37,085 bases of DNA from Reclinomonas americana ATCC 50394 (Eukaryota): positions 147,146-184,230 of the forward strand of contig PS015035.1 of NCBI GenBank assembly GCA_048213135.1. Direction: 5' to 3'. Below the pieces are notes generated by a model, which ran no database searches, was not told where the DNA came from, and saw only the letters and a program-made list of their open reading frames with translations. The position numbers and the translations under genes are program-made. Positions 567 to 36,524 of the stretch are shown in pieces; the first letter of the stretch is position 1; the number at the start of each line of letters is the position of its first letter.

Positions 567-3500
567 CGGCGACAGGACCTCTGCGCGTTGACGCGTGTTT
601 TGTTTTCAGTCACCAACAACCACAAACGAGCGAGAGAGAGGAAGTGAGATACACGAACCGCCAAGTTGATCAGTGAGGTGCGTGCGCAGCGAGGCCACCA
701 CCTGCTCCACACCGGCATGCACCAAGAACTCGGTCTTGGCCTGCTCGATGGAGCACAAGTTGGCCAGGCAGACGGCGGCGTTGATTTGTGAGTCAGCCTG
801 CCATCGATAAACACATGTTGAGTTGAAAACAAGAGACAAACAAACAATTCACGCCCCGTCGTGCTCGCACAAACCTCACGTGCGGCCAGCAACTCGATGA
901 GGACCTTGACGAGGCCGAGCTTGACCATCTCCGGTCGCGCATCCGCCTCGCTGCTCAGCTCGGCCACAATGGCCAACAACTGCGCACGCAGCATCTGCAT
1001 CGCCTCGGCCGTGGAGGTGACGTGGTGCAGGAAGAGCCGAACGATGCGCGCGACAAAGTTCATCTTCTTGATCAACTGCACCGTCTCCTCGAAGCGCAGC
1101 AATTGCGACACACAGCTGAGGCTCTCCTTCACCGTGTCGGGGTCGCGGGAGGCGACAGCCTGCAAAATGACCGGCAGGCCATTCAAGCGCATCACATCCT
1201 CCGAGAATGTGTCGTGTGCGCAGAAGAAGGTCAGCGACTTGGCGGCGAATCGCGCCGTCACCGTGTCGTTGCTGGACACCGCATTGAGCATCACCGGGAG
1301 GCCACCGAGACGCAAGAACTCGGTCAGGTTCTCCTCTGCAACCACCGTCGACGTGAGACCTCACACATTTTCGACAACAAAGTTCTCAGGCACAGCACAC
1401 ACGACGCACGGTTGATGAGCAAGTTGGAAATGGTGCGCGTGGCATAGCGACGCGTCTCCACGTCGGACAGCTCGAGCACGTGCAGCAGGGCGGGGAGACC
1501 GCCATGTCCGCGAATCTCAATCTTGTTCTTGGCTGCGCGACACAGATCAGACACCAGCGAAGAAACGGAAGCAAGAGGAGCGACACATGAACGTACCATT
1601 GACGGACAGGTTGATCAGAGTGCCCGCAGCGCTGCGTCGCACGTCAATGTCGGGCGAGTGCAGGCACTCAATCACCTCCGGAATGCCGCCGGCTGTGCGA
1701 ATCTCCACACGGTTCTCGGCTGTACCACCAATTATCGTGAGAGGGTGCGACACATCACGACGAAACAACATGGCAGCGTGTGGACGAAACTGTTGATCGA
1801 TAGGACCATCAGTGCTCGAATGGCACCCTTCTTCACTTCCAGATCGTCGGAGCGCAAACAGTCGACAAGCACCGGAATACCACCGGCTTCACGGATTTGC
1901 ACCTTGGTGTTGGCTGCACACTCACGGGTCAGCCACTTTCCCTTTTTTTTCGCGCCCCAACAAACCACCCCACTCTGGCTCACCTGCAAAACTGAGCGAC
2001 CGCAGCGTCTTGACGGCATCACGTCGCAGCAGCTCGTCGTTGCGGAAGCCTGCCAGCTGGATGAGGTACGGCACCACGCCCCGGCCGACGACGAGTCGTT
2101 CGTTCTCGTCGTTGACAGAGAGCGACCGAATCAGTGCCATGGCAGCGAGTCCGACCTCTCGGTTCGGCGGGTCAATCATCACATCCACAGTCGGGTCCAG
2201 GCCGCCCGCCTTGCGAATGTCCTCTTCCGCACCCTCGTCCATGCACAGCACATTGAGGATGCGCAGCGTGTGCTTCTGCACCTCCGGTCCGGTGTGCTGG
2301 ATGAGCGCGGTGAGACGCCGCAGGGCATTGGCCTGGCGAACCTCCGATCGCACCGCCGCTGTTCGATTGTACACACGCGTGTAAGCAGGGGAGCACCATC
2401 AATCACCACCGNNNNNNNNNNNNNNNNNNNNCCACCACCACCACCACCAATTCACACACCTTCCTTGGTGGCCAGCTCAAAGAGCTGCTTCAGCACCACC
2501 TCCAACTCGTCCGTCTCGGCCGTGCGCAGGCGCTGCAGCAGCGACTCGACACGATTGGCCGCGGAGCCGTTGGCCTGCGGAGTGCCCCAGGCGGCCAGCG
2601 GGGCCTTGGTAGTCGGCGGAGTTTCGGGTGCCGCCGCGCCTGCCGAGGCTGCCGCACCAGGCACCACGCCACCGTCGGTGACTGGCGCCGAGGTCGGCCG
2701 GCCGGCTCCGNNNNNNNNNNNNNNNNNNNNNNNNNNNNNNNNNNNNNNNNNNNNNNNNNNNNNNNNNNNNNNNNNNNNNNNNNNNNNNNNNNNNNNNNNN
2801 NNNNNNNNNNNNNNNNNNNNNNNNNNNNNNNNNNNNNNNNNNNNNNNNNNNNNNNNNNNNNNNNNNNNNNNNNNNNNNNNNNNNNNNNNNNNNNNNNNNN
2901 NNNNNNNNNNNNNNNNNNNNNNNNNNNNNNNNNNNNNNNNNNNNNNNNNNNNNNNNNNNNNNNNNNNNNNNNNNNNNNNNNNNNNNNNNNNNNNNNNNNN
3001 NNNNNNNNNNNNNNNNNNNNNNNNNNNNNNNNNNNNNNNNNNNNNNNNNNNNNNNNNNNNNNNNNNNNNNNNNNNNNNNNNNNNNNNNNNNNNNNNNNNN
3101 NNNNNNNNNNNNNNNNNNNNNNNNNNNNNNNNNNNNNNNNNNNNNNNNNNNNNNNNNNNNNNNNNNNNNNNNNNNNNNNNNNNNNNNNNNNNNNNNNNNN
3201 NNNNNNNNNNNNNNNNNNNNNNNNNNNNNNNNNNNNNNNNNNNNNNNNNNNNNNNNNNNNNNNNNNNNNNNNNNNNNNNNNNNNNNNNNNNNNNNNNNNN
3301 NNNNNNNNNNNNNNNNNNNNNNNNNNNNNNNNNNNNNNNNNNNNNNNNNNNNNNNNNNNNNNNNNNNNNNNNNNNNNNNNNNNNNNNNNNNNNNNNNNNN
3401 NNNNNNNNNNNNNNNNNNNNNNNNNNNNNNNNNNNNNNNNNNNNNNNNNNNNNNNNNNNNNNNNNNNNNNNNNNNNNNNNNNNNNNNNNNNNNNNNNNNN

Positions 3501-6500
3501 NNNNNNNNNNNNNNNNNNNNNNNNNNNNNNNNNNNNNNNNNNNNNNNNNNNNNNNNNNNNNNNNNNNNNNNNNNNNNNNNNNNNNNNNNNNNNNNNNNNN
3601 NNNNNNNNNNNNNNNNNNNNNNNNNNNNNNNNNNNNNNNNNNNNNNNNNNNNNNNNNNNNNNNNNNNNNNNNNNNNNNNNNNNNNNNNNNNNNNNNNNNN
3701 NNNNNNNCCGTCGGGAATGCGGGCGCGCGGATCCTTGGTGCGCGCCTGGGCGAGTTCGTCTTGCAGCTTGGTCTTGTCGTCGTGCAGCTTGCGGATAATG
3801 TCGTCCTTGGAGCGAATCACCTGCTCCAGTTCCGCGTACTGTTGCTGGAAGTCGTTCTTCAAGTTCTCCAGATCGGCCTGATGGCGTTGCATTTGCTGCT
3901 CGCGTGCCGTCTCCAGGTACTCGCTCTGTTGCGCCAACTCGCTCTCCAGCAGACGGATCTTCTGCGTTGCCATTTGCGTCTCCGTGCGCACATCCTCGGC
4001 GTGCTGCTCGCGCATGGACACGATCGTGCGCATCAGCTCGTCGCGTTCCTCGGCCCACCGCCGAGTGCGCATCTCCAACTCCTGACGCGCCTGTGTCGCA
4101 AGGAATCAGCCAAGTGGCCGCATATCACAGACACACACACAGAGCACAACTCACATGCGCCAACTCGTCACGCATGCGTGCATTGGTGAGAGCCAGAGTG
4201 CCAGTCTCCTTGTTGGAGAAGGTGTTTTGACGCAAAAGCTCCTCCTCCAGCTGATTGATCTTGACAATGGCCGCTGGGAAGCATCATTTCACCTCACGTC
4301 AGCGACAACAGTGGCAGTAAACACGAGGACACGCGACGACGCACCATCTCGCTCCTCCTTCAACGACTTGGTCAGCGCGTTGGTCTCCTGCTTCTCGGCC
4401 ATGAGCTTGACAAACTCCTTCTCGACCAGGTCGCGGTCCTCGCGCAGCGCCGCCTCCTGGCGGTACCACTCGTGCTGGGCGGCCTCGAACTCCGAAACTG
4501 GCATGAACTGCAGCGTGTCCTCGGCAATGTTGCGCTCCTGCAACACGGCGCTCAGCTTGAGGTGCTGCACGCGCATCTCCTCCTGGTGGTACTCGCTAAT
4601 CTGGTCCAGCTCACGGCGCAGAGACGAGATACGCTCCTGCGCCGACGCCAATTCCTGCAGTGAATTCGAGTGGCGATCCTTGAGTTCGGTCAACTCGACC
4701 GTCAAGCGCTGCGCCTCCACATTCGGCTTCTCCACCGCCAACTGCGCGCGCAGCGACTCCACCTGCGCCTCCAGCTGCTGGTTGTGGGCGGCCAGCGAAT
4801 TAATGTGCCTGCGGGCAAACTCCTCCTGCTTCAACAGCTCGTCCTCCAGCAGGCGCACACGCTCCTCCGAGCTCTTCTCGTGGTCGAGACGGGCCACGAG
4901 CTGACGGTTCACCGTCTCGCGCAGCAGGCCTTNNNNNNNNNNNNNNNNNNNNNNNNNNGCAGTCGCTGCACCTCCGACGCCAAATCCGACGACTTGCGCT
5001 CGTGGTTGGAGGCCGAGTCGAGCTCCTGCAACAGACGGTTCATCTCCCTCTCGAGAGACTCGAAGCGCTGCTGCTGGAACGACTCCTGCTGCTCGATCTC
5101 GCGCTTCAGCATCTCGATCTTCTCGTGCGCACCGTCGCGCGCCGACTCCACTTGCCGGGAGAGCGAGATCTCCAGCTTGGCCTTGTCCAGATTTCTGTGC
5201 GCACATTGTTACAGTCAGCCCATCAGCCGAGGGAAAAAGGGCGAAGCGAGGCGATAGCACTCAACTGCAGAGCATTCATGCGCACAAAGTCCTGATTCAG
5301 CTTGTTGTAGTCGGCCTGCAGCGACTCGTTGAGAGCCTCCAGCTCACGGACACGATCCACNNNNNNNNNNNNNNNNNNNNNNNNNNNNNNNNNNNNNNNN
5401 NNNNNNNNNNNNNNNNNNNNNNNNNNNNNNNNNNNNNNNNNNNNNNNNNNNNNNNNNNNNNNNNNNNNNNNNNNNNNNNNNNNNNNNNNNNNNNNNNNNN
5501 NNNNNNNNNNNNNNNNNNNNNNNNNNNNNNNNNNNNNNNNNNNNNNNNNNNNNNNNNNNNNNNNNNNNNNNNNNNNNNNNNNNNNNNNNNNNNNNNNNNN
5601 NNNNNNNNNNNNNNNNNNNNNNNNNNNNNNNNNNNNNNNNNNNNNNNNNNNNNNNNNNNNNNNNNNNNNNNNNNNNNNNNNNNNNNNNNNNNNNNNNNNN
5701 NNNNNNNNNNNNNNNNNNNNNNNNNNNNNNNNNNNNNNNNNNNNNNNNNNNNNNNNNNNNNNNNNNNNNNNNNNNNNNNNNNNNNNNNNNNNNNNNNNNN
5801 NNNNNNNNNNNNNNNNNNNNNNNNNNNNNNNGAATTGGTCACGCTCAAAGTTGGTGGCCGAGCCGACACGATCAAGCTCCTCCTGCAACTGCAGCACTTT
5901 GATGGCCGCATCGTCGAGCTGCGACAGCCGTCCCGTCAGCTTCTCCACCTCAGATCTGCGTGAAGGAGAGTGGAAATGGTCGTGAGGGCAGGTGTCAAAA
6001 ATCACTGGCGCAACTGCGTCGGTCAGCACACGCAACTTGAGTGCATCTCGTTCCTGGAACATGGCGTCGATCTGCTCCGGCGAGTAGCGTGCCGCCTTGC
6101 GCGTGCTGTTCTTCAGCTGCTGCATCTCGGCATCACGCATCACCAGCTCACGGCGTGCATCCTCCAAGTCCTTGCGCGTGTCGCGCAACTCTGCCAGCAC
6201 CGCCTGGTACGACTGCTCGGCGTGCGTGCTCTGCTTGAACAGCTCGCGCTCGTAGTCGTGGATCTTGTCGGCGGCGGCACGGCCGAGGCTCAGGTCGGCG
6301 GTTTCCTGAAGGCTCTTGTTCTGCCGCTCCAGTCGCTCCACCGTGGCCTCGAGTTCGGCGACACGAGCGAGACGTGCGCTCATCGCATTGCGCTCGTTCT
6401 CAGCACGGGTACGCAGCTCCTCGGACACGGCCAACTTGCTGGCCACGTCGGCCACCTCCGAGTCGGCGTGGCGCGAGATCTTACGAATCTCGTTCTCCAG

Positions 6501-12500: not shown

Positions 12501-15500
12501 CGTGGTGATGCGTCCACGGCCAGATTCCTCCTTCAGCTTCACCTTGGTGGCGTCGATTTCACGGCGCACCACCTCCAGGTCCTGCTCGTTCTCCCGCGTC
12601 GAGCGCTCCAGCAGCGCCAACTCGCGAGTAAGCTGCGAGATCTTGTCCGAGGCCAGGCGCTCCCGCTCTTCCACCTCACGCAGGCGGCTGTTCTCCGCCT
12701 TGAGTGCCGCCACTTCGCTGTTGCGCGCCTCGAGAGCCCGCGCGTGTGCGTTGAGCTGCTGCTGCAACTCGCTCAGCGTCTGACTCACGTCCTGCGACTG
12801 GCCGAGCTTGCTCCGCAGGCTGTCCACAGAGTGCTCGAGTGCGNNNNNNNNNNNNNNNNNNNNNNNNNNNNNNNNNNNNNNNNNNNNNNNNNNNNNNNNN
12901 NNNNNNNNNNNNNNNNNNNNNNNNNNNNNNNNNNNNNNNNNNNNNNNNNNNNNNNNNNNNNNNNNNNNNNNNNNNNNNNNNNNNNNNNNNNNNNNNNNNN
13001 NNNNNNNNNNNNNNNNNNNNNNNNNNNNNNNNNNNNNNNNNNNNNNNNNNNNNNNNNNNNNNNNNNNNNNNNNNNNNNNNNNNNNNNNNNNNNNNNNNNN
13101 NNNNNNNNNNNNNNNNNNNNNNNNNNNNNNNNNNNNNNNNNNNNNNNNNNNNNNNNNNNNNNNNNNNNNNNNNNNNNNNNNNNNNNNNNNNNNNNNNNNN
13201 NNNNNNNNNNNNNNNNNNNNNNNNNNNNNNNNNNNNNNNNNNNNNNNNNNNNNNNNNNNNNNNNNNNNNNNNNNNNNNNNNNNNNNNNNNNNNNNNNNNN
13301 NNNNNNNNNNNNNNNNNNNNNNNNNNNNNNNNNNNNNNNNNNNNNNNNNNNNNNNNNNNNNNNNNNNNNNNNNNNNNNNNNNNNNNNNNNNNNNNNNNNN
13401 NNNNNNNNNNNNNNNNNNNNNNNNNNNNNNNNNNNNNNNNNNNNNNNNNNNNNNNNNNNNNNNNNNNNNNNNNNNNNNNNNNNNNNNNNNNNNNNNNNNN
13501 NNNNNNNNNNNNNNNNNNNNNNNNNNNNNNNNNNNNNNNNNNNCCGACTGTCTTTTGCGCGTCGAGCTGCGCAGAGTTGTTGTAGTGCTCCAACTGCGCC
13601 AGTTCGTGCTCCAGCTGTCGGATCTTGTCGGATCCCTGCCGTTCGCGCTCGCGCACCTCCTTCAGCTCGTCGTACGCATTGGTGAGCTCGCCTTGCAACC
13701 GGTACACACTCTTGCGAGCCGTGCTCAGCTCTTGCGACATGCGTTCCATTCTGTATGGGCGCGGTTAGTACCAGCAGCAACAGGACAAGAGCGAGCGAAG
13801 AGAGAGGGAGGGGGGGGGCGGACACGAAACTGCGAATCAAAGGTCGAGGACGGCGCAGCAAACACCACGGCCTCTCGTGGCGGCTCCGGACGCAGGTCGT
13901 CGGCAGCACGTTGCATGCGACGCAGCTCGGCATTGAGCGTGGACACCTGTGGCATGCGCGTGAGCACACCTGTCTGTTTCTTTGGAAAGGAGAAACACAC
14001 TCACCTTGTCGACAGCAGAGGCCTCACGCTCCTGCAACTGGGCGCAGTCCTTCTTCAGCTGCGACACCTCGCGGTCGAGCTTGAACACCTGTGTGTGTTT
14101 GCGTGCCGACACAGCAGAGCGTTGGTTGTCGAGTCACTTGCACAACAACACAACACAGAGCGACTAACGCACCTCCTCCTTCAGGTGGCGAATCTCCACA
14201 TCCTTGGCGCGCAGCTCATTGGCGTGCACCTCGTCGGACGAGGCATCCGAGCGCATGCGCGCAATCTGCGAATCACGCTCGCGCAAGTTTTTCTCCAGGC
14301 GGGCTGCGCAGTCGAGATGACAGTCGTGAGGACCATTGAAACAAACGAACACATCAGAGCTCTGTGTACGTGCTTGCTCAACGCACCAAGTTCCTGCTGC
14401 TGTCGCGACATGTCATTTTCCATGCGCTTCAGCTTGTCCACCAGGCGCTCGTTCTCGTCCTGCAAATGCGTGCTCGACTCCTCCATCACGGACAGTCGCT
14501 GCCGCAGCTCATTGTCGCCAGTGACGCGCTCCGTGCCGCTCGATGGTCGCACGCGGAGCGAGAGCAGCGAGGCCGGGGCTGCCGCGGTCACAGCAGACGA
14601 GCCCGAAGCGGTGCTGCGGGTGGCCGACGACGGTCGGGTCGGCACGTTCTCCTTGCTCAGTTGCCTCGCAATCTCTTCACGCTCACGGCTCACCGCCTAC
14701 ACGTTGCGCCAACAGGTGAGTCAGCAGGCAGAATGGAGCGGGCTGAACAATGTCATGCACGCACCTCCTTGCGCTCCAGTGTGGCCTTCTCGCGCGCCTC
14801 CATGGCAGTCTCCATGTTGGCACGGAAAGCGTCAATCGCTCGGCGTCGCTCCGTGTCGTTGTCGCTCATCAGAGGCGCCAACGCGGCCGGGAGGGCCTCA
14901 CGGACCTCGTTGCGCTTGCCGCCGCTGCGGTCCTCCTACACGAACACGCGTGTGAGAGACTTGCGCGCGCTTGTGCGATAATGGTAGAAATTTCCCTTAC
15001 CGTGCACTTGATCAGCGTCTCCACAGCCATCTTTCGCACCTCCACGTCCTCGTCCTCGGCAAACTCCGCAATCGCCTTGAGCGACTGCTCGCGCGTCCTC
15101 TCCACCATCATGTTTCCGTCGACACACATGTGGTACACGCCCTTTATGGCGTGGCGCTTGGTCTTGATGTCGCGCGAGACCAGCGACTTGAGAATTGCAC
15201 TGCCGGCACCGAGAGCCATGACAGCGGCGCGGTTCGCCTCCTCCATCACCATAAACGAGAGTGCGCCCATGGCGTACCTGGCGATCGACACAGCGAATGA
15301 GCAACAAGCAAGCAAGCAAACAGCGAGAAGAGGAAAAGTGCAGCTCACCGACGAGCCTCCGGCTCACGGCCCTTGAAGCACTCCAACACAATCTGCACAC
15401 CGTCAACTGACGGCACGGCCGCATTGCTGCGCCATACAACAGGGTGAGTGTGTGTGGGAAAGGGCGAAGGCCTCGCCCTTTTTTCTCAAACGCAGACTCA

Positions 15501-17008
15501 ACTTGGCCGGATCCTGGCACATGTGCATGGTTGTGGCCAGAGCGTAGCAGCGAGCCTCCAAATCCGAGTCCTTGGTCAGTCGCAGCAACACCGGCAGCGC
15601 ACCGATGCGTCCAAGTGTGGCACGCGTGCGCTCTCCCAGGGACGCATTGCACAGACACCGCAGACCGAACCGCCGACTCTCCACATCTTGCGTGTTGCTC
15701 ACACAAAACAAAATCTCCTCGAGACCACCTGCGACACGCGCGCGCGCCGTGATGAGCAACCAGCGAGGAGGAGTGGGAAACAGGAAGGAGTAAATGATGC
15801 TTGCCGAACCTTCCTGGATCAACTGCGACTCGTTGTCTTCGTCGCTGTTAGAACAAACACACAAAGGTGTCAGAGTGCACTTGGTGAAGAAAATAGCACA
15901 TGTTGTCACCCCAACGCACCTGGCCAGGTTGATCAAACTGCACAACACGCGAGCCATTTGAGTTGATGAGTACACACAGGAGGAGGAGGAGGAGGAGGAA
16001 GAGGAAGGGGAAACAACGCACCTCGCAAGCGCATAGCGCTGCGTTTCTGGATCGTCCACCTTCAAGCATTCGATGACATTGCGAATGCATCCGAGCGGGC
16101 GGAACTGCATCTTATTCTGTGGAAGCGGGTGTCAGCCACCGCCATAGAGCACACAATAAAAGGAAGCGCGCGGCGCGCAACTTCGACGTTGATGGACAGG
16201 TTGCACACCTGCAAATCATTATGCACACAGAAAAGTGTGAGAAACACACACGGGAGAGAATCTGTGAAACTGCGACACGCACTGTTCGCAGAGCATCACG
16301 GCGAGTGCGAATGTCCTCAGCGAGGAGACACTGCACAATGAGCGGGAGACCGCCCTGCAGGCGGATTTCCACCTTGTTGATGTCGTGGATGCTCAGGTTG
16401 CACAGCGAGCTGCGACACCCGACAAATCAGCCACAAGAGAGTACGAAGAAATGGGCAAAGCGTGTGCGCACCGCAACGCGACACGCGTAATCTCGATATC
16501 CTGCGTGCCGCTGGAGAGGCAGTCGAGAATCGCTCCCACGCCGCCCAATCGCAAAATCTCCTTGCAGCTCGGCTCCTCAAAACTCATATTACACAGCAGA
16601 CGCAGGCACAGCTTCTGCACATCGTACGAATCCACAGAGAGCCACTCCACAAGAATATCCAAGCCACCCTGCTGTCGAATCTCCTCGCGGTATTGCGCTG
16701 GATGACGATCGCCATCAGCGTCGCAAAATAGAAACCCACATATACACACACACGCAAACCGCGAACTGACCATGCTGACTGATCTTCCACAAGATCCACA
16801 GTCCATCGCGCTGCGATGCTGCGTCGCCCTCGGTCAACATCTCCAGGAACTTGTCGACGCAGTTGTTGTGCTCAATGTTGACATGAAGCGATTCTGTCAC
16901 AAGAGAGAGAGAGTGAGTCAGGGCGCCAATGTCACTCTTTTGCGTGTGCGACTCACCATCGATTGTGATGCGACCGACTTCGGCCTGCCCCGCAGGCCGT
17001 GCGCGCTC
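567..17008 (-). CDS. Giant multi-exon protein: N-terminal ARM repeats, very long coiled-coil rod, C-terminal ARM repeats (partial; interrupted by gaps; start codon unresolved, probably ~17010-17135)
   Basis: More than 30 GT-AG introns join in-frame exons. ARM repeats at ~14990-16890 (REEIRQQGGLDILVEWL; KVEIRLQGGLPLIVQCL) and ~567-2500 (NTKVQIREAGGIPVLVDCL; NKIEIRGHGGLPALLHVL). Continuous E/Q/R/L/A-rich heptad sequence from ~3710 to 14940. Confidence 0.85.
11447..12228 (+). CDS. Coiled-coil exon fragment on an apparently inverted contig, belonging to the surrounding minus-strand gene
   Basis: Open heptad-rich frame on + between two N-gaps, ending at a G|GTGCGT donor (12229). It carries the same ERE...EL-LL motif at 98-aa spacing as the flanking minus-strand exons. 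Confidence 0.75.
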
Positions 17009-17134
17009 CTGTTATCAGAAACACACATGCCAAGTGAGCGCGCGGAGAAGCGGGGAAACAAACACAGAGTCCGATCTTCCGCATCATGTGAAATCGATAA
17101 ACGTGTCGCGTGCAACACACGCACTGGCGAACAT

Positions 17135-23700: not shown

Positions 23701-26700
23701 CAGGGCTTCCACAATCACGGGCAATAGAGCGGGTCAGGGGGGCGGAATCGATTCTTCCTTTTCTCTCCTCCGCCTCGTGAGGATGACTGCATCGGGGAAC
23801 ACGGTTTGTTGCAGTGTCTGCGCTCCGCATTTTGCTCTTTAAGTACTGAAGATGATGAATGTGTTCAATGTGGCGCAGGCTAGCGATCATGGCGGTTTCC
23901 TGTTTTCGTACTACTCCACCTTGATCATGTCGCTCTCCACCATTCGCACCAGCGGCTCAACCGCTGGTTCCGGTGGCGGTGTGTATGGCATCCAGTCGAC
24001 CACCGCCATCGACAGTACCTCCTTCACTTCCAATTCGGCGGCCAAGACTGGCGGAGCGCTCTACCTCGATCGGTGTCCTCTGGTGATGACCAACTGCACG
24101 GTGACGGACAACATTGCCGGTTCTGGTGGCGGCGTGTCGTTGATCGGCTCCAGGTCACGCGCTGCATCGCACGCACTTACTCACGTATCTACTCGCTCAC
24201 AACTGCTCGTGCATGCAACAGACCAAGCTCCATGTCAAATTGTGTGGTTTCGCGCAACTCGGCAACGTCGAATGGCGGCGGAATTCTGGTCGACGATAGC
24301 GCTCAGCTCTTGATTACTGGGCAAAGCACGCGAATCTCGCAAAACAGCGCTGCCACTGGGGGCGGCATTGCGTGCACTCTGGTGTGCTTGATTGTCACGT
24401 CACGATTGGAGATTGCACTTTGGTGTTGGAACTCATCACGCTGTGTCCCGCAACACAGTGCAACGAGTTGACGCTCACTGGCAACTCGATCTCGGAGCCA
24501 GTGCTGATCACCTCCAATGTTCTGACCAGTGACCCGAGTGCCTCCGCACCTCCAGTTCTCCGAGGTACGTAGTCTAGTGCTTCTGTCAGAGGAGTGATCG
24601 TCTGATGCATGATGTTGATGATGATGCTGCGCGCACAGGAGCTGGTGTGTTCGCGCAGCCTGTGCTCACAGCCCGGTTCAGTCTCGTCAACTTTGACACG
24701 AATCAGTGGTATGTGGGATTGATTCTCTCCTCTGCGTTTTCTTGCGCTGTTGCTTATCGTGCCGCAGTGAGGACTGCAATGGTGGCGCGATTTATGCTTC
24801 CGATCCCGGTGACATGTACGTCAGCAGCTGGTGCGTACAACGATGAGATAGGATAGGAGAGGATGAATACGACGGTGATGTGTTGTTGTGGCTCACCTTC
24901 TCGATTGCAGTGATTTCGTCAACAATAATGCCACCTTTGGAGGTCTGTACCACCAAACCCCCAGCGCGTTTCATGTTTCTCCACGCTGTGTGCTGACTTG
25001 TTCTTGTCTGTGTGCGCACAGGTGCCATCTACTACTCGTCGTCCAAGTTGCCGGCACCGGCGACAAACGACACTGCAAGTGTCGATTTTGGCGATGCTAT
25101 GAACCCGCTAACTTCAGCTGCCAGTGTGCGCACCGTGGGTGTACTGGCCACCACCAACGGATGCATCACGTCGTCCTCATTTCGCGGCAATTCGGTGAGT
25201 GATGACTGTTCACAACGTTCACACTCAGTACTCTTTTGTCGGCGCTGACACCCCGTACACTTGCTCTGCAGGCGTTGCGTCGTGTCTTAAAAAGGTCGTG
25301 GCCTGTCTCATGTTGCTGATGGGGTGTTTTGTTTGTCTAGTGCGGCTGGCGGTGGTGCCATTTACTACGACCGCAGTTCACCATGCGCCACGTCGCTGAC
25401 CTTGACGGCCAACACGGCAGCGTATGGTGGCTCGTTGGCGTCCGCAGGCCGCGTACTGCAGTACGAGGCTGTGAACACAACAAGCGGGGACGCTGCGACT
25501 AACCCTCGTGGCTCATCGGCGTCAGCACCTCTGACGGCACCCAGCGGCAACTTTGTGCGACCATTCAATGTGTACTTGGTGGACACGCTTGGCCAGCTGG
25601 TGCGCAGCTCGAGTGGAGTCAGTGTGTCCATCGATGCAGCGACCTCCAATGTCACCGTCAGTGGTGCCCGTTCCATGGTGTTTGACAGCGGCGTGGCGTA
25701 TTTCGACAGCCTTGTGGTTCGTCAATAACAGAAGTGCTTTTCTTCGTGTGTCTCTTTTCTCTTACTGTGGCTTCAGATTGTCGGTATGCCAAATACGGTG
25801 CAGACGCTTCGTGCCACGAGCGATACCACCAATCTGGTCATCTCGGTTCAGATGGACGCTTGTGTCGCCGGACAGTACCTCGATACCACGGCGCAGCGAT
25901 GTCGANNNNNNNNNNNNNNNNNNNNNNNNNNNNNNNNNNNNNNNNNNNNNNNNNNNNNNNNNNNNNNNNNNNNNNNNNNNNNNNNNNNNNNNNNNNNNNN
26001 NNNNNNNNNNNNNNNNNNNNNNNNNNNNNNNNNNNNNNNNNNNNNNNNNNNNNNNNNNNNNNNNNNNNNNNNNNNNNNNNNNNNNNNNNNNNNNNNNNNN
26101 NNNNNNNNNNNNNNNNNNNNNNNNNNNNNNNNNNNNNNNNNNNNNNNNNNNNNNNNNNNNNNNNNNNNNNNNNNNNNNNNNNNNNNNNNNNNNNNNNNNN
26201 NNNNNNNNNNNNNNNNNNNNNNNNNNNNNNNNNNNNNNNNNNNNNNNNNNNNNNNNNNNNNNNNNNNNNNNNNNNNNNNNNNNNNNNNNNNNNNNNNNNN
26301 NNNNNNNNNNNNNNNNNNNNNNNNNNNNNNNNNNNNNNNNNNNNNNNNNNNNNNNNNNNNNNNNNNNNNNNNNNNNNNNNNNNNNNNNNNNNNNNNNNNN
26401 NNNNNNNNNNNNNNNNNNNNNNNNNNNNNNNNNNNNNNNNNNNNNNNNNNNNNNNNNNNNNNNNNNNNNNNNNNNTGTGTGCTTGGCACTCACAAGACGT
26501 GCAACTAGTGTGCCGTCTGTCCCGATGGTGGTGTTTGTGGCGACGGTCTGCTACTGGGGCAAGATGAAGTTGCGTCACTTCCACACATGCACTGCGTAAG
26601 ATGCCGCGACTCATTTCTTTGCAGGGATTCTGGCGACCGCGATCCGACGCAATTGTATTTTACCCAGTTGCGTTGCCGGCCTTTATTCGTTCGCGTCTTA

Positions 26701-29700
26701 CTCATTGCTCTTTTGCACTGACCGCTCTATTTCAGTGTCCGAACAGCGACTGGTGCCCCTCGTACTCCACGAATCGAGTGTGTCGTGGCGGACACACTGG
26801 TCGCGTGGTAAGCGTGTGCTGCGTACTTGTGCCCTGCGTGCGGCAGACACTAACTTCTGCATTTTTGCGCCTGTTTCGCACCAGTGTGCCGTCTGCCAGG
26901 GTGCGTACACGTCCATGTCTATCTTTCGTTCAGACCTCCTGCTTCCTGACATTTTATGTTCCTCCCGAGATAGATGGCTGGTTCTTGAATGGTAGCTCAG
27001 GATGCACCAGTTTCGTAGACGCGTTGGCAACAGCTGTCTTTATCGTCGCTCACTGCGTGTGGCGGCGGTGGTGGTGATGATGATGATACAGAATGCGCAT
27101 CCTCCGCCCGAACAGCTCTCACGCTGGTTATTTTCGCCTCGGTTATCGCTGCTATGGTCTTCTTCTTCTGTGCGTCAACAATACATCTGCGCTGCACACC
27201 GATTTGTGTATTCACCATGCGTTTCTGTGCAGATTTGATTCGCACTGCCGGGTAACGGAGTACACGAGCTGTTTACATCACAAGGTTGTGCCTCTCTCAC
27301 TCACACTCGCGTATTCCTCACGCAGTGCCATGATCAAGCTGCGCATTTTCGTCTCCTTCCTGCAGGTCCGTTAAAGTCAAACCATTGTATTTGTGCACGC
27401 GTTTGTTTGTGCTGACCACGCTGCTCTGCCCGCGCGTGCAGATGGTGTACGAGTTGCCCGAGTATCAAGTACCGTGGCCGCTATCGTGCGTCTGTCGCTC
27501 TCTTTGCGCATCAGTGGCCTCGGGGATGCAGCAGTTGACAGTGTGCATACAAACAGTTGGCTCAATCTCAGCACTCAATTCGCTTTCTTGGAGCTCGACA
27601 TTCTCCAGGCGACGGTGCGCATCGCGTAGAATAGTTGTTGTCTCTCAAAAGCGCACAGGATCGTGCAACTGACTGCGTCTGCTGCAGTCGTTCCGCTGCA
27701 TTGCCCCCAGCATTGGGTGCGGCGGGGAATGTTCGATTGCTTGTTTCATTCTATGCTGCAGCGCTCACACGGTGGTGGTGTTGCAGAGACCTGTACTTTG
27801 TGAAGATTGTTCTCATCCCGCTGCTGCCGGTTATTGCCATTGGCATCCTCTTCATCGTTTTCGTTGCGTCACAGCTGCAGTTGCAATTTTTCGCCCGCTT
27901 GTCTGAGTGCCCGGTCCGTGCCTGCAGCTGCTATCCAGGCCCGCTGTCCGCGCGAAGCTAAAGCTGTGCTGCTGTCGCTATTTCCTTTGCCGTCGCAAAT
28001 GGAAGCCCGTTGATGAGCTGGGCGACGACGACGACACGGCAAACGATATCGATGCTGTGGACGTGGGTGGCGATAACGACTCGGTGTCATCACAGAATGA
28101 CCAGTTCGTGGCATCGCCGGAGGCACTGCGGGCAGGCTCCACGCAGTACGCGTCCACCGAGCTTTCTACGTTTTCACCACCGTCACCTGACGATCAGGCG
28201 GATCGAACCCGGGTGCGCCCCATTGTGCCTTGTGCTGCTTCATAAATGCAATCTGTTGCTCACAACTTGTGTGCAGACTACCTCTGCCGGAGCGACCATG
28301 GTGTGTAACTCGCACGTGACTGATTCGCGTGGGCTGTTGGTGTTGTTGCACCGCTCACTGGTGCCTTCTTTGTTGCAGAATCGCAATGATGTAGTGTCGC
28401 CGTCAATGGTTTGTGCACGTGCTTCGGACGCGCCAGGTTTGCTTGCTGCACCACCAGCGTGTGCCACTGACGCGCGTATGCGCGTGGCCGAGAGTTGCGT
28501 GTTTTCCCACACAACTGGAACAGAGTGAGACACAACCTAACGCATTTCATATCTTGGTGAGCAGAGGTGGCTCGCGGCCTCAATGCGACGAAAGACGCGT
28601 CGGTGGCGTCCTCTTCCGACGGAGAGGAGCGAGATGACTTTGATTTCATGTCTGTGGGTGAGTGCATCGTCCTGATTGGAGCGCGCGGCTTCAGCCTCGT
28701 TCGCAGTGACTGAACAATATGCATGCATGCGGCAGACTCCATGATGGTGCTGAGTCCATTCGAGCTGTTTGTGCAGCGGAGGTACGTGGTTGCTCAGATT
28801 GCTCTTCACGTACAACCGATATATTCATGCTTTGCGCACAGTTTCCTCGTCGTCTTTATCGCCTACCCGGTATGTGGAGCAGAGTGTGTTCGTTGCGTTG
28901 TACCTCTCATGCTAACTCGCGCGCTGTGCAGGGTGTCGGCGGTGCGTACTAGGACAGTGAGAGATCAAGAAGTCGCAACAATGCTCTCGCTCACACCTGT
29001 TTGTTTCGCAGCCACCCTCCTGTCGTACTTTAACTGTCAGGTGGGTTGGCTCTCTCGTGTGCCATGCTTGTGTTCTGATCCACTCAATCTGTCGAGTGCA
29101 GTTGCTCAACGACGGATCGTGGAACAAGAAAGGCATGTTGCTGCTAGGGGTCTCGTTGTGTGAGTCTGTGACTGCGGCTGCTAATGCATGTGTGGCTTGA
29201 CAGATTTTTCAGTGGCATGCTACGACACCAAATGGTTCAGCTTCTTGCCGTGGGTGGTGCGTGGCATTGATAAGTGTGCGTATTTTTGTGCGGGGCGACT
29301 GCTGACGTACATCTGAGCAGTTGGTGTGGTGCTTCCTGATCCCGGTCGGCTTCCCCCTGGCGTGAGTCCATACGCACCCGCTATTCTCGTCGTGGAGGCA
29401 ACCTCAAACTCCATGTGTGTGTGCTTGTGCATTCACAGCATTGGACTCACGGTCGGCTTCAACCGACGCCGACTGCGTCGATTCAAGTTTGAGCATCGAT
29501 GGGGGTTCCTGTACGAAGGTGTGAATCACGAACGTGCTCGTTTGCTGTATCTGTCAAGCTCATTATGTCGCTCGTACACAGCCTATCGGTAAGTATGTGT
29601 GTCGCCGCTGCAGCAAACATGTCTGCCTTCTGATTGCGTTTCACGTGGGCGATCTGCTGGCATCTGGCAGGAAGGGAGTTTCGTTGTCTCTGTCCGTTTT

Positions 29701-32054
29701 CATTGCTGCTGACCAATCTCATTCGCTGACTCGCTCTGTGTTTGTGACTGTCGTCTGCAGGCCGAATACTGGGAGGTGTGTGCACACTTCACTTTCTATT
29801 CACTCAGTGTGCGTGAATCGGTGTACTCATTTTGTGTGTCGATTGGCAGGTCACTGAGCAGGTTCGACACCAAGTCGATTGCATTCTCTAACGCTCGTTG
29901 CGCACTGTGTCGCTAACAGCGTGTGTCACTTGGCTTTGCTTCTGCACAGATTCGCAAGGTGAGTGTGTTCAGTTGTGGTGTATATCATTGCGCGGCTATG
30001 CCTCTTGTCTCACGATGCGTTTCTTGTCGCAGCTCACACTGGCCAGTCTGCTGATTGTGCTGGGTGAGTTGATGTTGCATTGTGCGACTGTGTCAGTGAC
30101 CACGCTCACCGCGCAGCCGACAGGTTTCCAACCGGCACTCCAAATCCTGCTCGGTGTCGTTGTGTCGGCCGCTGCAATCATCGGTCACCTCATTGTGCGA
30201 CCATTCAAGGAGCGAAGTGACCAGTGGCTGCAGGTGAGAGGCAGAAGGGCGAACAGGGAAAGAGATTGAAAGTGGGAAGGAGGGCGAGGAGGAGGAGGAG
30301 GAGGAGGAGGAGGAGGAGGAGGAGGAGGAGGAGGAGAAGAGGCGTTGGAGAGAGAGAGAGCATACATAGCCATGTCTCTAATGACATGAAAATTTCATAG
30401 TGTGTTCGTGAGAAAGGGGAGGGGAAAAGTGGGAAGGAGGGGAGGAGGAGGAGGAGAGGGAGAGATAGTGCATGTGCTTTGCAGCGTTTTTTCTCATTCG
30501 TGACTACGCCTGTACAGACGGCGTCACTCATTGACATTTTTTGTGAGTACTGTAACCATCCGCTTCGTGTGTGTTGCTGCCATTCACTCACTGTCGACCT
30601 TGTTTTTTTTTTTTGAACAGCGCTGCTTGTTCTCGGCATGGCACTGAGGTAATTGAGATGCCATATTGAAGAACAGCGCGACAAAGTGAAGGAACTCACT
30701 TGTGTGTTTCCTCTGTGTGTAACAGGATGCAAACACTGCCGTCTGAGCGCAACTGTTGCGTATTGCAGCGTTGCACCTTCTATTGATGGGGTTTCTCACA
30801 ACTGTGAATCAGTTTTCAACATCATTCTCGTGGTGCTCACGTGCTTCAGTGCGTATCCATCCTGCTGCATGACGGTGCAATCGCCGCACACTTGGCTCAC
30901 TTAAATTGTGTTCTACTACAGTCATCATTCTCGGCGGTACGATTCTGTTCCTTGAGGTACGTGTGACTGCGATCGTCAGAGAAAATCGCACGTGGCGCCA
31001 AGTGAAACTCAATCACTCTTTTCCATCGCCGCCAGATCACTGTCGAGGTGTGTAGCTGCAGGCAGCATTCGTTGGCATGTTCTCCTTGCGTCGCTGACAC
31101 CACTGTGTGGCTATTTCGCAGTCCCGTCGTGTCGTGGCGCACTACCCTCGTCTCCGTTGCTTGTTGGGCTGGGTGTTCTGCTTCTGGTGCGCACAACGGT
31201 GTTGTTTGCATAGGAGCATGACGATGTCACTGACCCTGTGCGTTGTAGCATCAAGCGCTGCCGACCGGCGTACATGGAGCATCCTAAGGCGCATGTACAT
31301 CACGATCATGCGCACGACGACGACGACGACTACGAGGATGAAGAGGACGAGCGCACAGTTATGCTGGAACTGCAGCAGTATCCGATGTTGGCGCCCATGG
31401 ACGACGATGCAGTTCTGTCGTGTTCTTCCCAACGCATGCGCGTGTGTTTGTGTGTATGAGTGCATATACTCACCGCTGCGCTCGTCGTTGCAGCGTGCAC
31501 GCATGACCAACTTGGTCCGTTCGTGTTTCGCGGCGGCGACTCAGTCTGTGGGCGGCGCTGCTGCGGCTGCGCAAGATCCGGCGTCGCCTGCTGCTTCTGA
31601 AGCCAAGCCGTTCCATGTGCTCCTCCGGGAGCATGCTGCAGCTGCCAGCGCTGCAAGTCAGGCACTACCGGCTCAAGTGACACCACCACCATCATCGCCT
31701 CGCACGCCACCGCTGCATCCAGCCGACGAGACGCGGCCCGGCGGCGACGTGCTGTCACTCCCCGCATCGCCGCGTCTCCTGTTACCGCAACCACCACCGC
31801 TGCCGTTGGTGGTGAGTGGCAGCGCCGATGGTCGCCGGGAGCGGCGCCACACCTCGGCCGATCGCACGGAGGTGCTGCTGCCCGGCACGCCAGTCCACTC
31901 GTCGCTGGACGATGACAACTGCAGCAACATCTTTCCTGTACAAGACTTCTCCGACGACGAACGCCGCAGTGGTGGTGGCAGCAGCAGCCACAGTGGCTCC
32001 ACTAGCCCACGTCGCCAGCTGTTGCCTCGCTCGCGGTCGCGGTCGCCAAGATAA
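17754..32054 (+). CDS. Large secreted-ectodomain multi-pass membrane protein: signal peptide, SBBP-type beta-propeller module, fibronectin type III, Pmp-like parallel beta-helix repeats, Cys-rich region, multi-pass TM domain, Pro/Ser-rich tail
   Basis: ATG at 17754 (MRALLLLLLLLLSVTVVA, signal-like); TAA at 32052-32054; at least 73 introns traced. Spliced motifs: PLHIDP..GSFFG..DDTATSVAVSPSG..IAGYT and GGSGNDAANSIAFSSAEDVVICG (SBBP-like); LQWT...DFRVRAV...GPWS (Fn3); many N-A-x-x-GGA(I/L) repeats; CAVCPDGGVC/CRGGHTGRVCAVC; KLRIFVSFLQ, VPWP, DFSVACY, PVGFP, GFLYEAY..YWE...RKL, RPFK. These last motifs are typical of the TM region of protist Pmp-repeat membrane proteins. Confidence 0.85.
25272..25273 (+). 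other. Putative 2-nt micro-exon (GC)
   Basis: GCTGAC...CTGCAG|GC|GTTGCGT, between introns 25195-25271 (77 nt) and 25274-25340 (67 nt). It supplies the 2 nt needed to join a phase-0 donor to a phase-2 acceptor, giving GNSAAAGGGAIYY. Confidence 0.7.
30286..30337 (+). repeat. (GGA)n microsatellite in an unusually long intron (30234-30517)
   Basis: Directly visible run of GGA triplets followed by (GA)n. Confidence 0.9.
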
Positions 32055-32131
32055 TGTACACGAAGTCGTCCTGCTTGACATGACGCACTCCATTCACTCG
32101 TCCGTCTCGAGACAAGAAGGAAGGCGCACAG

Positions 32132-35042
32132 ATGGCGCACTTTCAAGATTACACACCAGCTTCCTTCCACCGAGAGGTGTGAGCTCGTAATGCGAGCGAC
32201 TGTGCACGCACGTATTCTCACTCACATGCCTCGTCAGCGACCAACATACGATGGCAAACGTATGCGACCGCCCGTGGAACGCAAGTACTTTGACTACACA
32301 AGCACCATGTTGAGCGCACAGGAGGTGAGCAGACAGACTGAAGAAGAGCAGGAAAGGTGCATGTGAGACTGAATGTTGTCGCGCGCACACACACAGTTCC
32401 AAGTCTTTCACGACCTCACCGACCCTGCGTTGGAACTGGAGCCCGACTTGCCTTACATGAAGGACGTGCGTATGTGTATGTATGTGTGTGTATGTGCGCA
32501 TGAGAGACGCGACTCACACGCAAGAGTCCACTTGCGACTGGGACACACAGTTGTTGCCGACCTTTGTGGAGACCAAGGCCTCGCAGAGCATCACCACACG
32601 CTTTGCGCATCCGTCGAAGAACAAGGAGCGATGCGCCAACAATGTGATTGTGTGGACTCCAGAGGGGCGTCGTTTGATTGCCGGCAACGCCAAGGGCGAG
32701 TTCACCCTGTGGAATGGCTCTGCGTTCAACTTTGAGACCATTCAGCATGCGCACAACATGCCCGTGAAGGCCATGGAGTGGAGCCACAACGAGGTGTGGA
32801 TGATCTCGGGTGACAATGCCGGCGAAATCAAGTACTGGCAGACCAGCATGAACAATGTCAAGGAGCTGCCGGAGGCGCACACGCAGCCGGTGCAGTCGTT
32901 GAGGTTCGTGTATATGCATAACTGGTGTGCGTACGAATGTTGCTGAGAGCGAGGGCGTGGGGCCACCAGCTTCTCGCCCACCGACATCAAGTTCGCGTCG
33001 GGGTCGTCGGATAGTGTGGTGAAGATTTGGGACTTTGAAACGTGCACTGCCGAGTGTGAACTGCGTGAGCATCGTGCCGACGTGCGGTGTGTGGCTTGGC
33101 ACCATCGCAACTCGATCATTGCCAGTGGCGGCAAGGACCACGTGGTGAAGCTGTGGGATGCGCGAGCGGCGCAGTCCATCAACGACCTGTTGCGTCAGTG
33201 CTTCTCGCTTATTGCGAATCACGTGGCTGACAATGCGTTGTGGTTGCAGTACTGTGCACAAGGATTCGGTGTTTGATGTCAAGTGGAATCTCAACGGGGT
33301 GTGGCTGGCCACGGCGTCGCGCGACGGCACCGTCAAGATCGTCGACATGCGCAATCTGAAAGTGCTCAGCATCCACCGTCGCTCCAACAATCCCGGAAAC
33401 GATCCGCACGTCAATTGTTGCGTGCTCTGTGGAGGGCATTTGCGTGTATCGTGTGCTTTCAGAGTCCATTAACAGTGCGTGAGTGCAGCCGTCTCGTGGC
33501 ATCCTTTCCACGAGGATCTGTTTGCCAGCGGGGCGCATGACGGATCCGTCATGTTCTGGTTCGCCGGCTTGGAGGAACCGCAAGCGGCCATCTACAGGGC
33601 GCACGAAGACGCTGTGTGGGATGTGGCGTGGCATCCAATGGGACACATCTTGGGCTCCGGCAGCAAGGACAACTGGATCAAGTTCTGGGTGCGCAACCGG
33701 CCCGGCGACGACATGATGGACCGGTACAGCCGACTGGAGGTGCCCAAGAGCATTTTTGCGCCCGAANNNNNNNNNNNNNNNNNNNNNNNNNNNNNNNNNN
33801 NNNNNNNNNNNNNNNNNNNNNNNNNNNNNNNNNNNNNNNNNNNNNNNNNNNNNNNNNNNNNNNNNNNNNNNNNNNNNNNNNNNNNNNNNNNNNNNNNNNN
33901 NNNNNNNNNNNNNNNNNNNNNNNNNNNNNNNNNNNNNNNNNNNNNNNNNNNNNNNNNNNNNNNNNNNNNNNNNNNNNNNNNNNNNNNNNNNNNNNNNNNN
34001 NNNNNNNNNNNNNNNNNNNNNNNNNNNNNNNNNNNNNNNNNNNNNNNNNNNNNNNNNNNNNNNNNNNNNNNNNNNNNNNNNNNNNNNNNNNNNNNNNNNN
34101 NNNNNNNNNNNNNNNNNNNNNNNNNNNNNNNNNNNNNNNNNNTCAGCCGCGCCCGGTTCAGGTACGAGATAGAATTCTCTGTGTGTGTGTGTGTGTGTGT
34201 CTCTGCACTTTTCGTTTCTCACCTTGCATCCTAGTCTCCAACTCGGCCGTGGCCCACATGCCGGCGATCCCTGGTCTCGGTTGGGGCGGCCGTGCCAACG
34301 ACTTTTACGATTCCTCGTCGTCATCGTCGTTTGGTGCTGGCGCCGGCGTCGGCGGTGGCGCACCTCCGCCCCCCGCGCCATCCAACAGCTACCCACCGCG
34401 CTCCTACCAGGGACCGGGAGGCGGTCGTGGAGGACCACCGGCACCACCCAACCACTATGGAGCGTCACGCGGGGCGCACATCAAGGAGGAGGGTGGTCAC
34501 ATGCCGCCGGGAGGCCCGCCAGGTGTGCCCTACGGTCGGCCGCCCATGCCACCGCACGGTGACGGACGAGGTGCGATTTTTTGCGAGGTTGAGTTGTGCT
34601 TTTCTTGTTCTCACTCCCTGCTATTCAGGCGGTCATCCGCCACCACCGCCGCCGCCACCACCTCCGCCGCACTTCAACATGGGTCAGTACATGCAACAAC
34701 AGCCACCTCCTCGACAGGGACCGCCACCACCGAATTACATGCACGGAGCGCCGCCACCACCGCCACCACCACCACCGCAACATGGTGGCGGGTGGGGTGG
34801 TCCACCAAACAGCATGATGCAAGGACCACCGCCACTGCCTCCACCACCACCATATGGCCATGGTCTTCCGCCACCGCCGCAGCCACCACCATATGGGTGA
34901 GTCGGGTGTCTGTTTCAGATGTTCATCTCCCGACTATCTCACTCTCCTTCTCCTCGACAGTGGCCATCGACCGCCGATGCCCATGCCGCCACCGCCGCCG
35001 TCACAACATCACATGAGCTCGGATCATCCACCTGGTGTTTAG
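32132..35042 (+). CDS. WDR33: pre-mRNA 3'-end processing WD40 protein WDR33/Pfs2/FY with a Pro/Gly-rich C-terminal tail
   Basis: Spliced protein contains the family-diagnostic motifs [73 protein letters not shown] and [12 protein letters not shown] at 32132; TAG at 35040-35042; at least 9 introns; internal N-gap at 33767-34141. Confidence 0.95.
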
Positions 35043-35155
35043 CGCAGAGCAGAAACAATGAAAAAGAAAAAAACAATGTCGAATCGTTTATCATTCATCG
35101 TCGTCAGTGCGCGACTCCCTGAGCAGTGTGGCCAGCAAACCGAGTGCCATCATCG

Positions 35156-36411
35156 CTACACTGCTCCGGTGATGCGACTGCGATCCATCTGCGCCCGGTA
35201 GCCCTTGACCGACTTGGCCACCGAGCGACCGGCGCCGCACGAATGGCAGTCCACTCGATGCAGCCGAGTCGCTGCGTCCTTGCCGATCACCGTCAGCAGG
35301 GACTGACACGTGCTGCATCGCACGTACTCCTCGATGTATCGGCGAAGAAGCTCGGCCATGTCCTTCGCCTGTGCGCGGGGGAGGCGGAGAATGAGTGACA
35401 CCAGTTCGATATTCACATGCAGTTCTGCCAAACAATACCTTGTAGTGACCGCGCAGGAGCAGGCCGCCGCGCATGTCCACACTGCCCGTCGTCGCCAGCT
35501 CGAAGAGAATAAACTGCAGCAGGTGCTGCTGCCGATCCAGCGGCGTGCACGTCGACGTGACGGTCGTTGTCGTCGTCGTGCCTGTCGTCGTCCGAGCCTC
35601 CAACCTGTTCGATATATGTGCATCAGCATCAGCAATCATGACTTCTCTCTCTCTCTTTCTCTCGACCGAGCACTACGCAACGCCTCGCAGAACAGGTGAA
35701 AGTTGACAAAGCAGCAACGCCGACCGCCCACTCGCTCCATCACTGGAGCCGTGCGACTCGGCGTCGTTGTCGTCGATCGCGACGAAATCGAGCAGTTGTC
35801 TGCATCGTCGAGCGACGCAGCCGCCACGGGCAGCGCCCTGCGCGGCGCGTGATGTGCCGCAGACGTCCTCGCCGCCATGGCCACCATGAGACGGCTCACC
35901 AGAGTGCTGTACGAGTACAGGCCCGACATCACGTCCTCCTCGGCATCCTCGTCGTCCACAGCAGTCGTCGCGTCGTCTCCTCCTGTCGCATTCATCGCCT
36001 TCTTGCCTTCTCCACCACCACCGCCTGCGCCCTGCTTCTTGTCTTCGACCTCCTCTGCGCCCTTGTCGGCCTTCTTGCTCGTTGCGGTGCTGCGCTTCTT
36101 CTTCTTCTTCTTCCCGTCGAGAGCCAAAACTGGCACCTCGACATCGACTGCCTCCGGCGACTGCTTTGCCGGCTGAAGAATGCCCGGTCCACGCTTCTCA
36201 CCACCGCCCTCACCACCGCTCTCCGAGTCACCGACGGATGACATGTTGTCTCCGCAAGCAGCATCCTGTCGGAAAAAGAGTGGGAGGTGTGGGAGGTTGT
36301 CAGTGAGCAAGATTTCGGTAATAAAAAGAAAAAGACAACATCAATGCTCACCGCTGCGGCGCATGCTGCAGCTGATCTGCAGTTCATGGTGTTGTATGCT
36401 TGTCTGTTCAT
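35156..36411 (-). CDS. EIF2S2: Translation initiation factor eIF2-beta-like protein (eIF2B/eIF5 domain with C4 zinc ribbon), divergent
   Basis: Poly-Lys box (DGKKKKKKR), YSYSTLVSR, CFVNFHLFC, HLLQFILFELATTGSVD, LLRRYIEEYVRCSTC...CHSCGAGRSV. Introns at 36266-36351, 35604-35681 and ~35369-35438. Start is either 36411 or the in-frame ATG at 36244. Confidence 0.8.
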
Positions 36412-36524
36412 GGTTGTTGTCGTTGTTGTTGTTGTGCTCGTTTAAGTTACTCTCTTCTCTCTCTCAATGATGCAAAAATGACAAAATACACTTCAGCTCG
36501 ATCGGACAGACAGGATCTAATCGA

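Follow-up and report, generated by a model that had tools for sequence, protein, structure and literature searches.

Donors, that is 5' splice sites, of two kinds are found in the 37,085-base window of Reclinomonas americana ATCC 50394 DNA analyzed here (contig PS015035.1; all coordinates below are those of this window). The window is GC-rich eukaryotic DNA with 12 runs of N, and it is densely packed with short introns. The introns predicted in it confirm that, beside the ordinary donors with G at intron position +5 (G+5), there is a second class in which the motif is displaced by one base, with T at +3 and G at +6 (T+3/G+6), and that this shifted class is real, abundant and confined to exon ends other than G. 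Judging from the sequence, its members begin true GT-AG introns of the major-spliceosome type and are most likely bound by the ordinary 5' end of U1 shifted by one base, a reading that we consider probable but far from secure. The mechanism itself is known from rare human introns, and what appears to be new is the shifted register as an abundant class.

The final set comprised 103 introns: 75 with ordinary G+5 donors, 22 with shifted T+3/G+6 donors and 6 with other donors. Ordinary donors followed G in 64 cases and another base in 11, whereas none of the 22 shifted donors followed G (12 followed A, 7 C and 3 T; Fisher p = 5.6e-14); the other donors followed G in five cases and non-G in one. 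Put the other way round, 22 of the 34 donors preceded by a base other than G were shifted, as opposed to 0 of the 69 preceded by G, and the shifted form was taken by 12 of the 13 donors preceded by A.

A preliminary description of the window had listed 22 shifted donors, said never to follow G, to restore the reading frame when cleaved at the shifted GT, and to make up nearly a fifth of the introns in all four genes. All 22 heptamers stand at the coordinates and on the strands given there, and they are indeed preceded by 12 A, 6 C and 4 T. Our independent set likewise showed no G at -1 and a similar proportion (22 of 103), and all 22 of its shifted sites join open frames. Twenty of the listed sites are in this set, together with new ones at 20847 and 23164; at the remaining two, 30755 and 31412, the motif is present but an intron was not placed. 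The number of genes had been underestimated, since the translations of our gene models show at least six genes in the window. Shifted donors are carried by at least five of them, namely the ARM/coiled-coil genes, a giant Pmp-like gene, a WDR33-like gene and an eIF2-beta-like gene.

The shifted class is tight. Fourteen of its 22 members are exactly GTTGCGT, and the class consensus is GTT[G/T]CGT. The ordinary donors that follow a base other than G are equally uniform, all 11 being perfect GTG[C/A]GT (GTGCGT in seven, GTGAGT in four), and only one of them follows A. It seems that weak pairing on the exon side is offset in one of two ways, by a hexamer that is perfect or by a shift of register. 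In other respects the shifted introns look like their neighbors. Their median length is 72 nucleotides (nt), compared with 73 nt for ordinary introns, their 3' ends (GCAG/ACAG) match the ordinary ones, and they have a CTNAY motif some 20 nt away from the 3' end. All-against-all blastn of 121 predicted introns revealed no sequence shared among shifted introns; the 17 matches obtained were all between ordinary introns, at several offsets, and resembled GT-repeat tracts. Because the shifted introns are otherwise ordinary and share no sequence beyond the splice sites, they would be neither a transposon-like family (introners) nor U12-type introns. An excess of phase 2 among shifted introns (p = 3e-4) was also considered and was given up, as it was an artefact of wrong frames that disappeared after curation (6/6/10, p = 0.10).

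Introns were traced from the DNA sequence only, using our own dynamic-programming gene finder, orthologue profiles and hand curation. The gene finder combined codon log-odds, the trinucleotide content of introns, a prior on intron length, and splice-site matrices re-estimated from its own output, and it was run in four ways. The first parse had a single donor matrix trained on ordinary donors and was therefore biased against the shifted class; it still kept 8 of the 22 claimed sites, and where it lost them it often took donors without a motif or skipped exons. The second used a mixture of two donor classes, which settled at 75:25, and it found 19 of the 22 claimed sites plus three extra shifted donors. 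The third was a two-class parse with intron-only matrices, so that the -1 base was hidden from the model. It too found 19 of the 22, and in its table the G+5 donors stood 62 times after G and 20 times after non-G, whereas the T+3/G+6 donors stood 0 times after G and 23 times after non-G (Fisher p = 1.1e-11). The fourth had no donor matrix, all GT being equal. It recovered 12 claimed sites per run and 14 in the union of three runs at different penalties, and the only shifted-type donors that it picked were claimed sites. For the final set, seven doubtful predicted introns were removed (2406, 11752, 17548, 17328, 17124, 36562 and 36351), the predictions for 26476-30233 were replaced by a hand-curated chain of 30 exons, and 30234-32150 was left out. 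Because both lie in this left-out stretch, t/GTTGCGT at 30755..30761 (+; the slash marks the exon-intron boundary) and a/GTTCTGT at 31412..31418 (+) are outside the final set; the former was chosen only by the no-matrix parse, at two of three penalties, and the latter by none of the four parses.

We replaced the shifted matrix by 17 decoys, made by permuting the same columns, in the intron-only setting. All 17 fell below the true motif, attracting 1 to 9 donors each, whereas the true motif attracted 23, out of 58 occurrences on the sense strand; the top decoy, GTGTCGT, overlaps genuine members of the class such as GTTTCGT. On the antisense strand the two-class model predicted 10 introns, with no shifted donors. 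GTTGCGT itself occurs 14 times on the coding strand, where it never follows G, and twice antisense. This count is weak evidence, because the sense strand is rich in G and T and the composition-matched heptamer GTGTGCT reaches 14 sense and 3 antisense occurrences. When acceptor and frame were kept constant, no other in-frame GT with a donor motif lay within 30 nt of 16 of the 22 shifted donors that the two-class parse had placed.

The base preferences of the shifted class suggest how it may be read. When the class is read one base later, it shows the preferences of the ordinary class at every free position (-2, +3, +4, +6 and +7). Its -1 base resembles the ordinary -2 base (A 0.55 vs 0.35, C 0.32 vs 0.25, G 0.00 vs 0.12, T 0.14 vs 0.28), its +4 the ordinary +3 (G 0.73 vs 0.64), its +5 the ordinary +4 (C 0.91 vs 0.53) and its +7 the ordinary +6 (T 0.91 vs 0.79). 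Against the conserved U1 5' end, shifted donors would form a mean of 5.89 pairs in the +1 register and 3.50 in the canonical one, whereas ordinary donors would form 6.63 in the canonical register and 3.51 in the shifted one; 21 of the 22 shifted sites would pair better in the +1 register.

These statistics fit the proposal of the preliminary description that the sites are recognized in a shifted register, in which the block complementary to U1 would lie one nucleotide deeper in the intron (H/GUU-NN-GU as against G/GU-NN-GU). G+1 would pair with C9 of U1, the usual partner of the exon G-1, and A-1 would replace A-2 opposite U10. U+3 would replace U+2 opposite A7, leaving U+2 unpaired and facing C8, and G+6 and U+7 would take the places of G+5 and U+6 opposite C4 and A3. 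The cleavage site would be set at a later step, the bound stretch containing a single GU. The excess of A at -1 had been explained in the same terms, by A-1 standing in for A-2, and the 12 shifted donors among the 13 preceded by A are what pairing at U1 position 10 predicts. Three steps are inferred here: that the reader is U1, that G at +6 is accommodated by U6, and that the rule extends to the whole genome.

Evidence at the protein level, which involves no splice model, comes first from the WDR33/Pfs2 orthologue (about 32100-33766, +, translated model). Using an orthologue profile, we scored all in-frame GT..AG pairs within 36 nt of five of its introns, and the junction of our model scored highest at all five. 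Two of these introns have shifted donors, both t/GTTGCGT. The one at 33189..33195 (+) scored 554.0 bits, compared with 546.9 for a donor at 33198 (a margin of 7.1), and the one at 33417..33423 (+), which all four parses chose, scored 6.4 bits above every in-frame alternative within 36 nt. When its exons were aligned one by one to human WDR33 chains, the ranges left uncovered exactly those residues that the 33189 join contributes, and the join is therefore gapless.

The ARM-repeat genes provide a second line of evidence, from repeat periodicity. The segment 567-12842 (-, translated model) has an ARM-repeat part and a long coiled-coil part that may belong to a single gene. Within it, at 1410-1913 (-), three successive 123-nt exons encode one 41-residue ARM repeat each, in a tidy layout of one repeat per exon in which the introns share repeat position and phase. 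Because these exons align with one another without gaps, the shifted donor a/GTTTCGT at 1784..1790 (-), found in all four parses, takes the same place in its repeat that the ordinary donors at 1596 and 1409 take in theirs. All four parses also chose a/GTTGAGT at 5259..5265 (-), which has no other in-frame GT within 30 nt, and a/GTTGCGT at 6030..6036 (-), whose sole in-frame alternative within 30 nt lacks a donor motif. In the second gene of this kind, with ARM plus coiled-coil regions (13544-17008, -, translated model), a/GTTTCGT at 13824..13830 (-) was likewise common to all four parses. The two-class, intron-only and no-matrix parses agreed on a/GTTGAGT at 15496..15502 (-) and on a/GTTGCGC at 16175..16181 (-), which ends a 27-nt exon encoding VCNLSINVE. 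When the translations are read by eye, both donors yield 41-residue units, whereas a canonical-only model skips the VCNLSINVE exon and shortens the unit at 15502 to 36 residues. A further shifted donor in this gene, proposed at 16477 by the intron-only parse, was given up for an ordinary one at 16471, with which the ARM motif ALRSLCNLS is retained.

Most of the remaining sites lie on the plus strand, in the giant gene from 17931 to at least 30233 (+, translated model), which encodes a Pmp-like repeat protein with a Cys-rich part and a multi-pass membrane tail. Five sites were shared by the two-class and intron-only parses: c/GTTGCGT at 18131..18137 (+), which is ambiguous, having an in-frame c/GTATGCG 6 nt upstream; t/GTTGCGT at 19067..19073 (+), picked also by the no-matrix parse at one of three penalties; the new c/GTTGCGT at 20847..20853 (+); c/GTTGCGC at 21259..21265 (+), whose in-frame alternatives lack a donor motif; and the new a/GTTTCGT at 23164..23170 (+), which restores the Pmp-like repeat motif F-x-x-N ... 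GGA(L/V/I) and has an in-frame G+5 alternative 27 nt downstream. The sites at 19067 and 20847 have no in-frame GT within 30 nt. Two more sites were found in all four parses, c/GTTACGT at 23632..23638 (+), with an in-frame t/GTCGGGC 18 nt downstream, and c/GTTGCGT at 25274..25280 (+), which follows a 2-nt exon. Around the latter, at 25195-25340 (+), the sole frame that continues the protein (FRGNS-A-AAGGGAIYY) requires the 2-nt exon GC at 25272-25273, flanked by introns of 77 nt (GTGAGT...CAG) and 67 nt (GTTGCGT...TAG). This exon reflects either sequential splicing or an indel in the draft assembly.

Between 26476 and 30233 the gene finder was plainly wrong, giving wrong frames and 1-nt exons, and the chain was assembled by reading the sequence. 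The resulting 30 exons are open throughout, reading CAVCPDGGVCGDG...GFWRP, and encode Cys-rich repeats (CAVCPDGGVCGDG..., CAVCQDGWFLNGSSGCTKC) and then membrane helices. The 29 introns between them measure 53-88 nt; 22 have G+5 donors, 6 have shifted donors and 1 has g/GTAACGG. The six shifted donors are exactly those that had been claimed for this region. They are a/GTTGCGT at 26569..26575 (+; also in the two-class parse); a/GTTGCGT at 26667..26673 (+; two-class and intron-only parses); a/GTTTCGT at 27010..27016 (+; two-class, intron-only and no-matrix parses), across which the chain reads CAVCQDGWFLNGSSGCTKC; c/GTTGCGT at 27863..27869 (+; intron-only parse), where the single-matrix parse took an in-frame GT 6 nt upstream (GTTTTCG, lacking a donor motif); a/GTTGCGT at 28494..28500 (+; two-class and intron-only parses, and no-matrix at one penalty), which ends an open curated exon of 115 nt; and a/GTTTCGT at 29678..29684 (+; all four parses), which follows a 7-nt exon. 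Neither 27010 nor 28494 has an in-frame GT alternative. A shifted donor at 29155 in our own parse was dropped, being replaced by an ordinary t/GTGAGT at 29160, 5 nt away. Within the chain, at 29582-29958 (+), there are five successive micro-exons (7, 7, 15, 12 and 9 nt) with introns of 74-88 nt between them, and their joint translation is YR/KG/AEYWE/VTEQ/IRK.

The last shifted donor, c/GTTGCGT at 35675..35681 (-; two-class and intron-only parses), lies in the eIF2-beta-like gene (35156-37085, -, translated model). When a profile of 107 eIF2-beta relatives was used, the model with this donor scored 169.7 bits, compared with 161.7 bits for the canonical-only model. Two local alternatives without a motif reached 170.2-170.3 bits, which is a tie.

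Several points weigh against a U1 bound one base out of register at these sites. All counts come from one 37-kb window, and every junction was deduced from DNA alone. In-frame G+5 alternatives lie within 30 nt of the donors at 18131, 23164 and 23632, as was also the case at the dropped 29155, and at 35681 the eIF2-beta profile cannot separate the donor from its two neighbors. The absence of G-1 is only moderately surprising against the background, since G precedes 12 of the 96 sense-strand T+3/G+6 motifs. The pairing counts assume the conserved U1 5' end, which may differ from this organism's own. Once U1 has gone, U6 would face G at +6 instead of +5, for which the analysis offers no explanation. 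Finally, a register with a bulged U gives an equal number of pairs on the intron side.

This bulged register is the strongest of the other explanations, although we consider it unlikely. Roca and colleagues are said to have described bulged U1 registers in 2012. Applied here, the donors would be the same, and U1, and later U6, would keep the normal register by bulging out one of the two U residues of the GUU (bulge +2/+3). As in bulged and asymmetric-loop registers, one extra nucleotide stands between the GU and the G and U that pair with C4 and A3 of U1, and a bulge at +2/+3 fits GUU sites, the intron-side pairs being the same ones (G+1, one U, a G+4 wobble, G+6 and U+7). Those registers keep the exon G-1 paired, however, whereas the shifted class never has G-1. 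A bulge leaves the -1 base opposite C9 of U1, so that G-1 would be expected at a frequency like that of ordinary donors (64 of 75), but it was observed at 0 of 22 sites, and the -1 base of the shifted class instead mirrors the ordinary -2 base in being A-rich and G-poor. Bulges at +2/+3 have a precedent, as a passage of Tan et al. 2016 (PMC4856993) gives 68 predicted human sites for them. In our window, two donors among the plus-strand introns, g/GTCACGC at 24154 and g/GTAACGG at 27252, have G+6 but not T+3, both follow G and both look like a +3 bulge. These two may be true bulge cases and would fit a second, rarer noncanonical register.

A bolder form of the shifted-register reading is that the code has two registers throughout the genome. 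About one-fifth of introns, those whose exon cannot have G-1, would be read out of register by a spliceosome adapted to it, through a variant U1 or U6 or a handover to U6 that tolerates G+6, and the shifted register would be normal and selected. We regard this as improbable. A similar idea, that the sites have a dedicated reader and form a true second splice code, is slightly less probable still. The reader would be a U1 variant (changed, for example, opposite U+2), a U6 variant or a protein factor. In favor of this idea are the sharp separation and uniformity of the class, with 14 of 22 members exactly GTTGCGT, and its share of a fifth of the introns; human variant U1 genes exist, according to part of a published account (PMC3561869). 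On the other hand, a search of the window with Rfam at gathering thresholds returned 0 matches, with no U1, U5 or U6 gene there, the ordinary U1 5' end already accounts for the free positions, and the shifted introns match the others in length, 3' end and branch-like motif.

The least probable explanation is that the class arose partly or wholly from misplaced exon ends, the true donors being ordinary ones nearby: the placement of introns from DNA, the errors of the gene finder in 26476-30233, the loss of 29155 to a GTGAGT 5 nt away, the vanished phase-2 excess and the in-frame alternatives at 18131, 23164 and 23632 speak for it, but eight sites survived a parse biased against the class, 16 of the 22 two-class donors (29155 still included) lacked a motif-bearing alternative nearby, and the decoy and antisense controls, the orthologue profiles and the repeat periodicity all argue against it.

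A U1 register shifted by one base is best compared with what is known in humans. Roca and Krainer reportedly described, in 2009, such a +1 shifted register at atypical human 5' splice sites. A few dozen human sites of this kind are known, and they were proven with suppressor U1s. As in those sites, the donors described here have U after the GU, G at +6 and not at +5, and an exon without G-1; G+1 would take the pairing place of G-1 and cleavage would stay at the GU, the latter as the sequence suggests. Unlike the human sites, they account for 22 of 103 introns in one window and have a tight consensus of their own, GTT[G/T]CGT, as far as sequence evidence goes. In comparative studies of ordinary donors, exon G-1 and intron G+5 compensate each other. 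The situation here is similar in that the intron makes up for weak pairing of the exon, as with the perfect hexamers of ordinary non-G donors, but compensation of that kind keeps the register whereas the shifted class changes it. U12-type introns, whose donor consensus is RTATCCTT, also form a discrete second class beside the main one; none of the 22 shifted donors resembles this consensus, and, unlike U12-type introns, the introns are otherwise indistinguishable from their neighbors.

In the full-text literature searched, we found no report of an organism that uses the shifted register as a routine class. What was found on it was human work only, apart from one speculative sentence on a tunicate in a part of PMC13326754. 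In the portion of Tan et al. 2016 concerned (PMC4856993, Figure 1B, citing reference 10), the shifted register appears as a rarity published earlier, and noncanonical U1 registers are put there at 2.1% of human 5' splice sites together.

The gene models gave some further results. A fragment of an ARM-repeat gene lies at 1-546 (+, translated model). The WDR33/Pfs2 exon at 32551-32901 (+) has its best relatives, 53-63% identical, in blastocladiomycete and zoopagomycete fungi, ichthyosporeans (holozoans) and metagenomes, and no protein more than 63% identical was found in the library of 5.8 billion proteins searched, so that the proteome of the source organism is apparently not represented in public protein sets. 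Amorphochlora, a chlorarachniophyte rich in introns, was rejected as a source of the DNA on account of its genomic GC content of 27% (PMC12730881). A homologue search with the open reading frame at 31098-32054 returned no match, and the eIF2-beta exon found nothing relevant among PDB sequences. At 11447-12271, between two N runs, the minus-strand translation is leucine-rich and differs from the adjoining coiled coil; it resembles coiled-coil coding sequence read from the opposite strand, and the assembly may have this piece inverted. At 20466-20496 (+), about 25 consecutive C residues lie within an intron of the giant gene. Read by eye, this gene may continue through an exon at 30483-30542 and end at the TGA at 30646-30648, in which case the sites at 30755 and 31412 would belong to a different transcript or be untranslated. 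A (GAG)n tract lies at about 30275-30335 (+), inside the stretch 30234-32150.

Human 5' splice sites that are recognized out of register are a curiosity and have been studied mainly as a confounder in predicting splicing mutations. If one intron in five uses the shifted register here, the organism would provide a natural system for studying how the cleavage site is chosen independently of the position of U1, how the 5' splice site is handed over from U1 to U6 with a conserved G at +6, and how a coding constraint on the exon, where G is not possible at -1, shapes the sequence of the intron. Gene finders with a single donor matrix will mis-annotate such genomes; with one such matrix, our own parse missed 14 of the 22 claimed sites and in several of these cases skipped or clipped conserved exon sequence.

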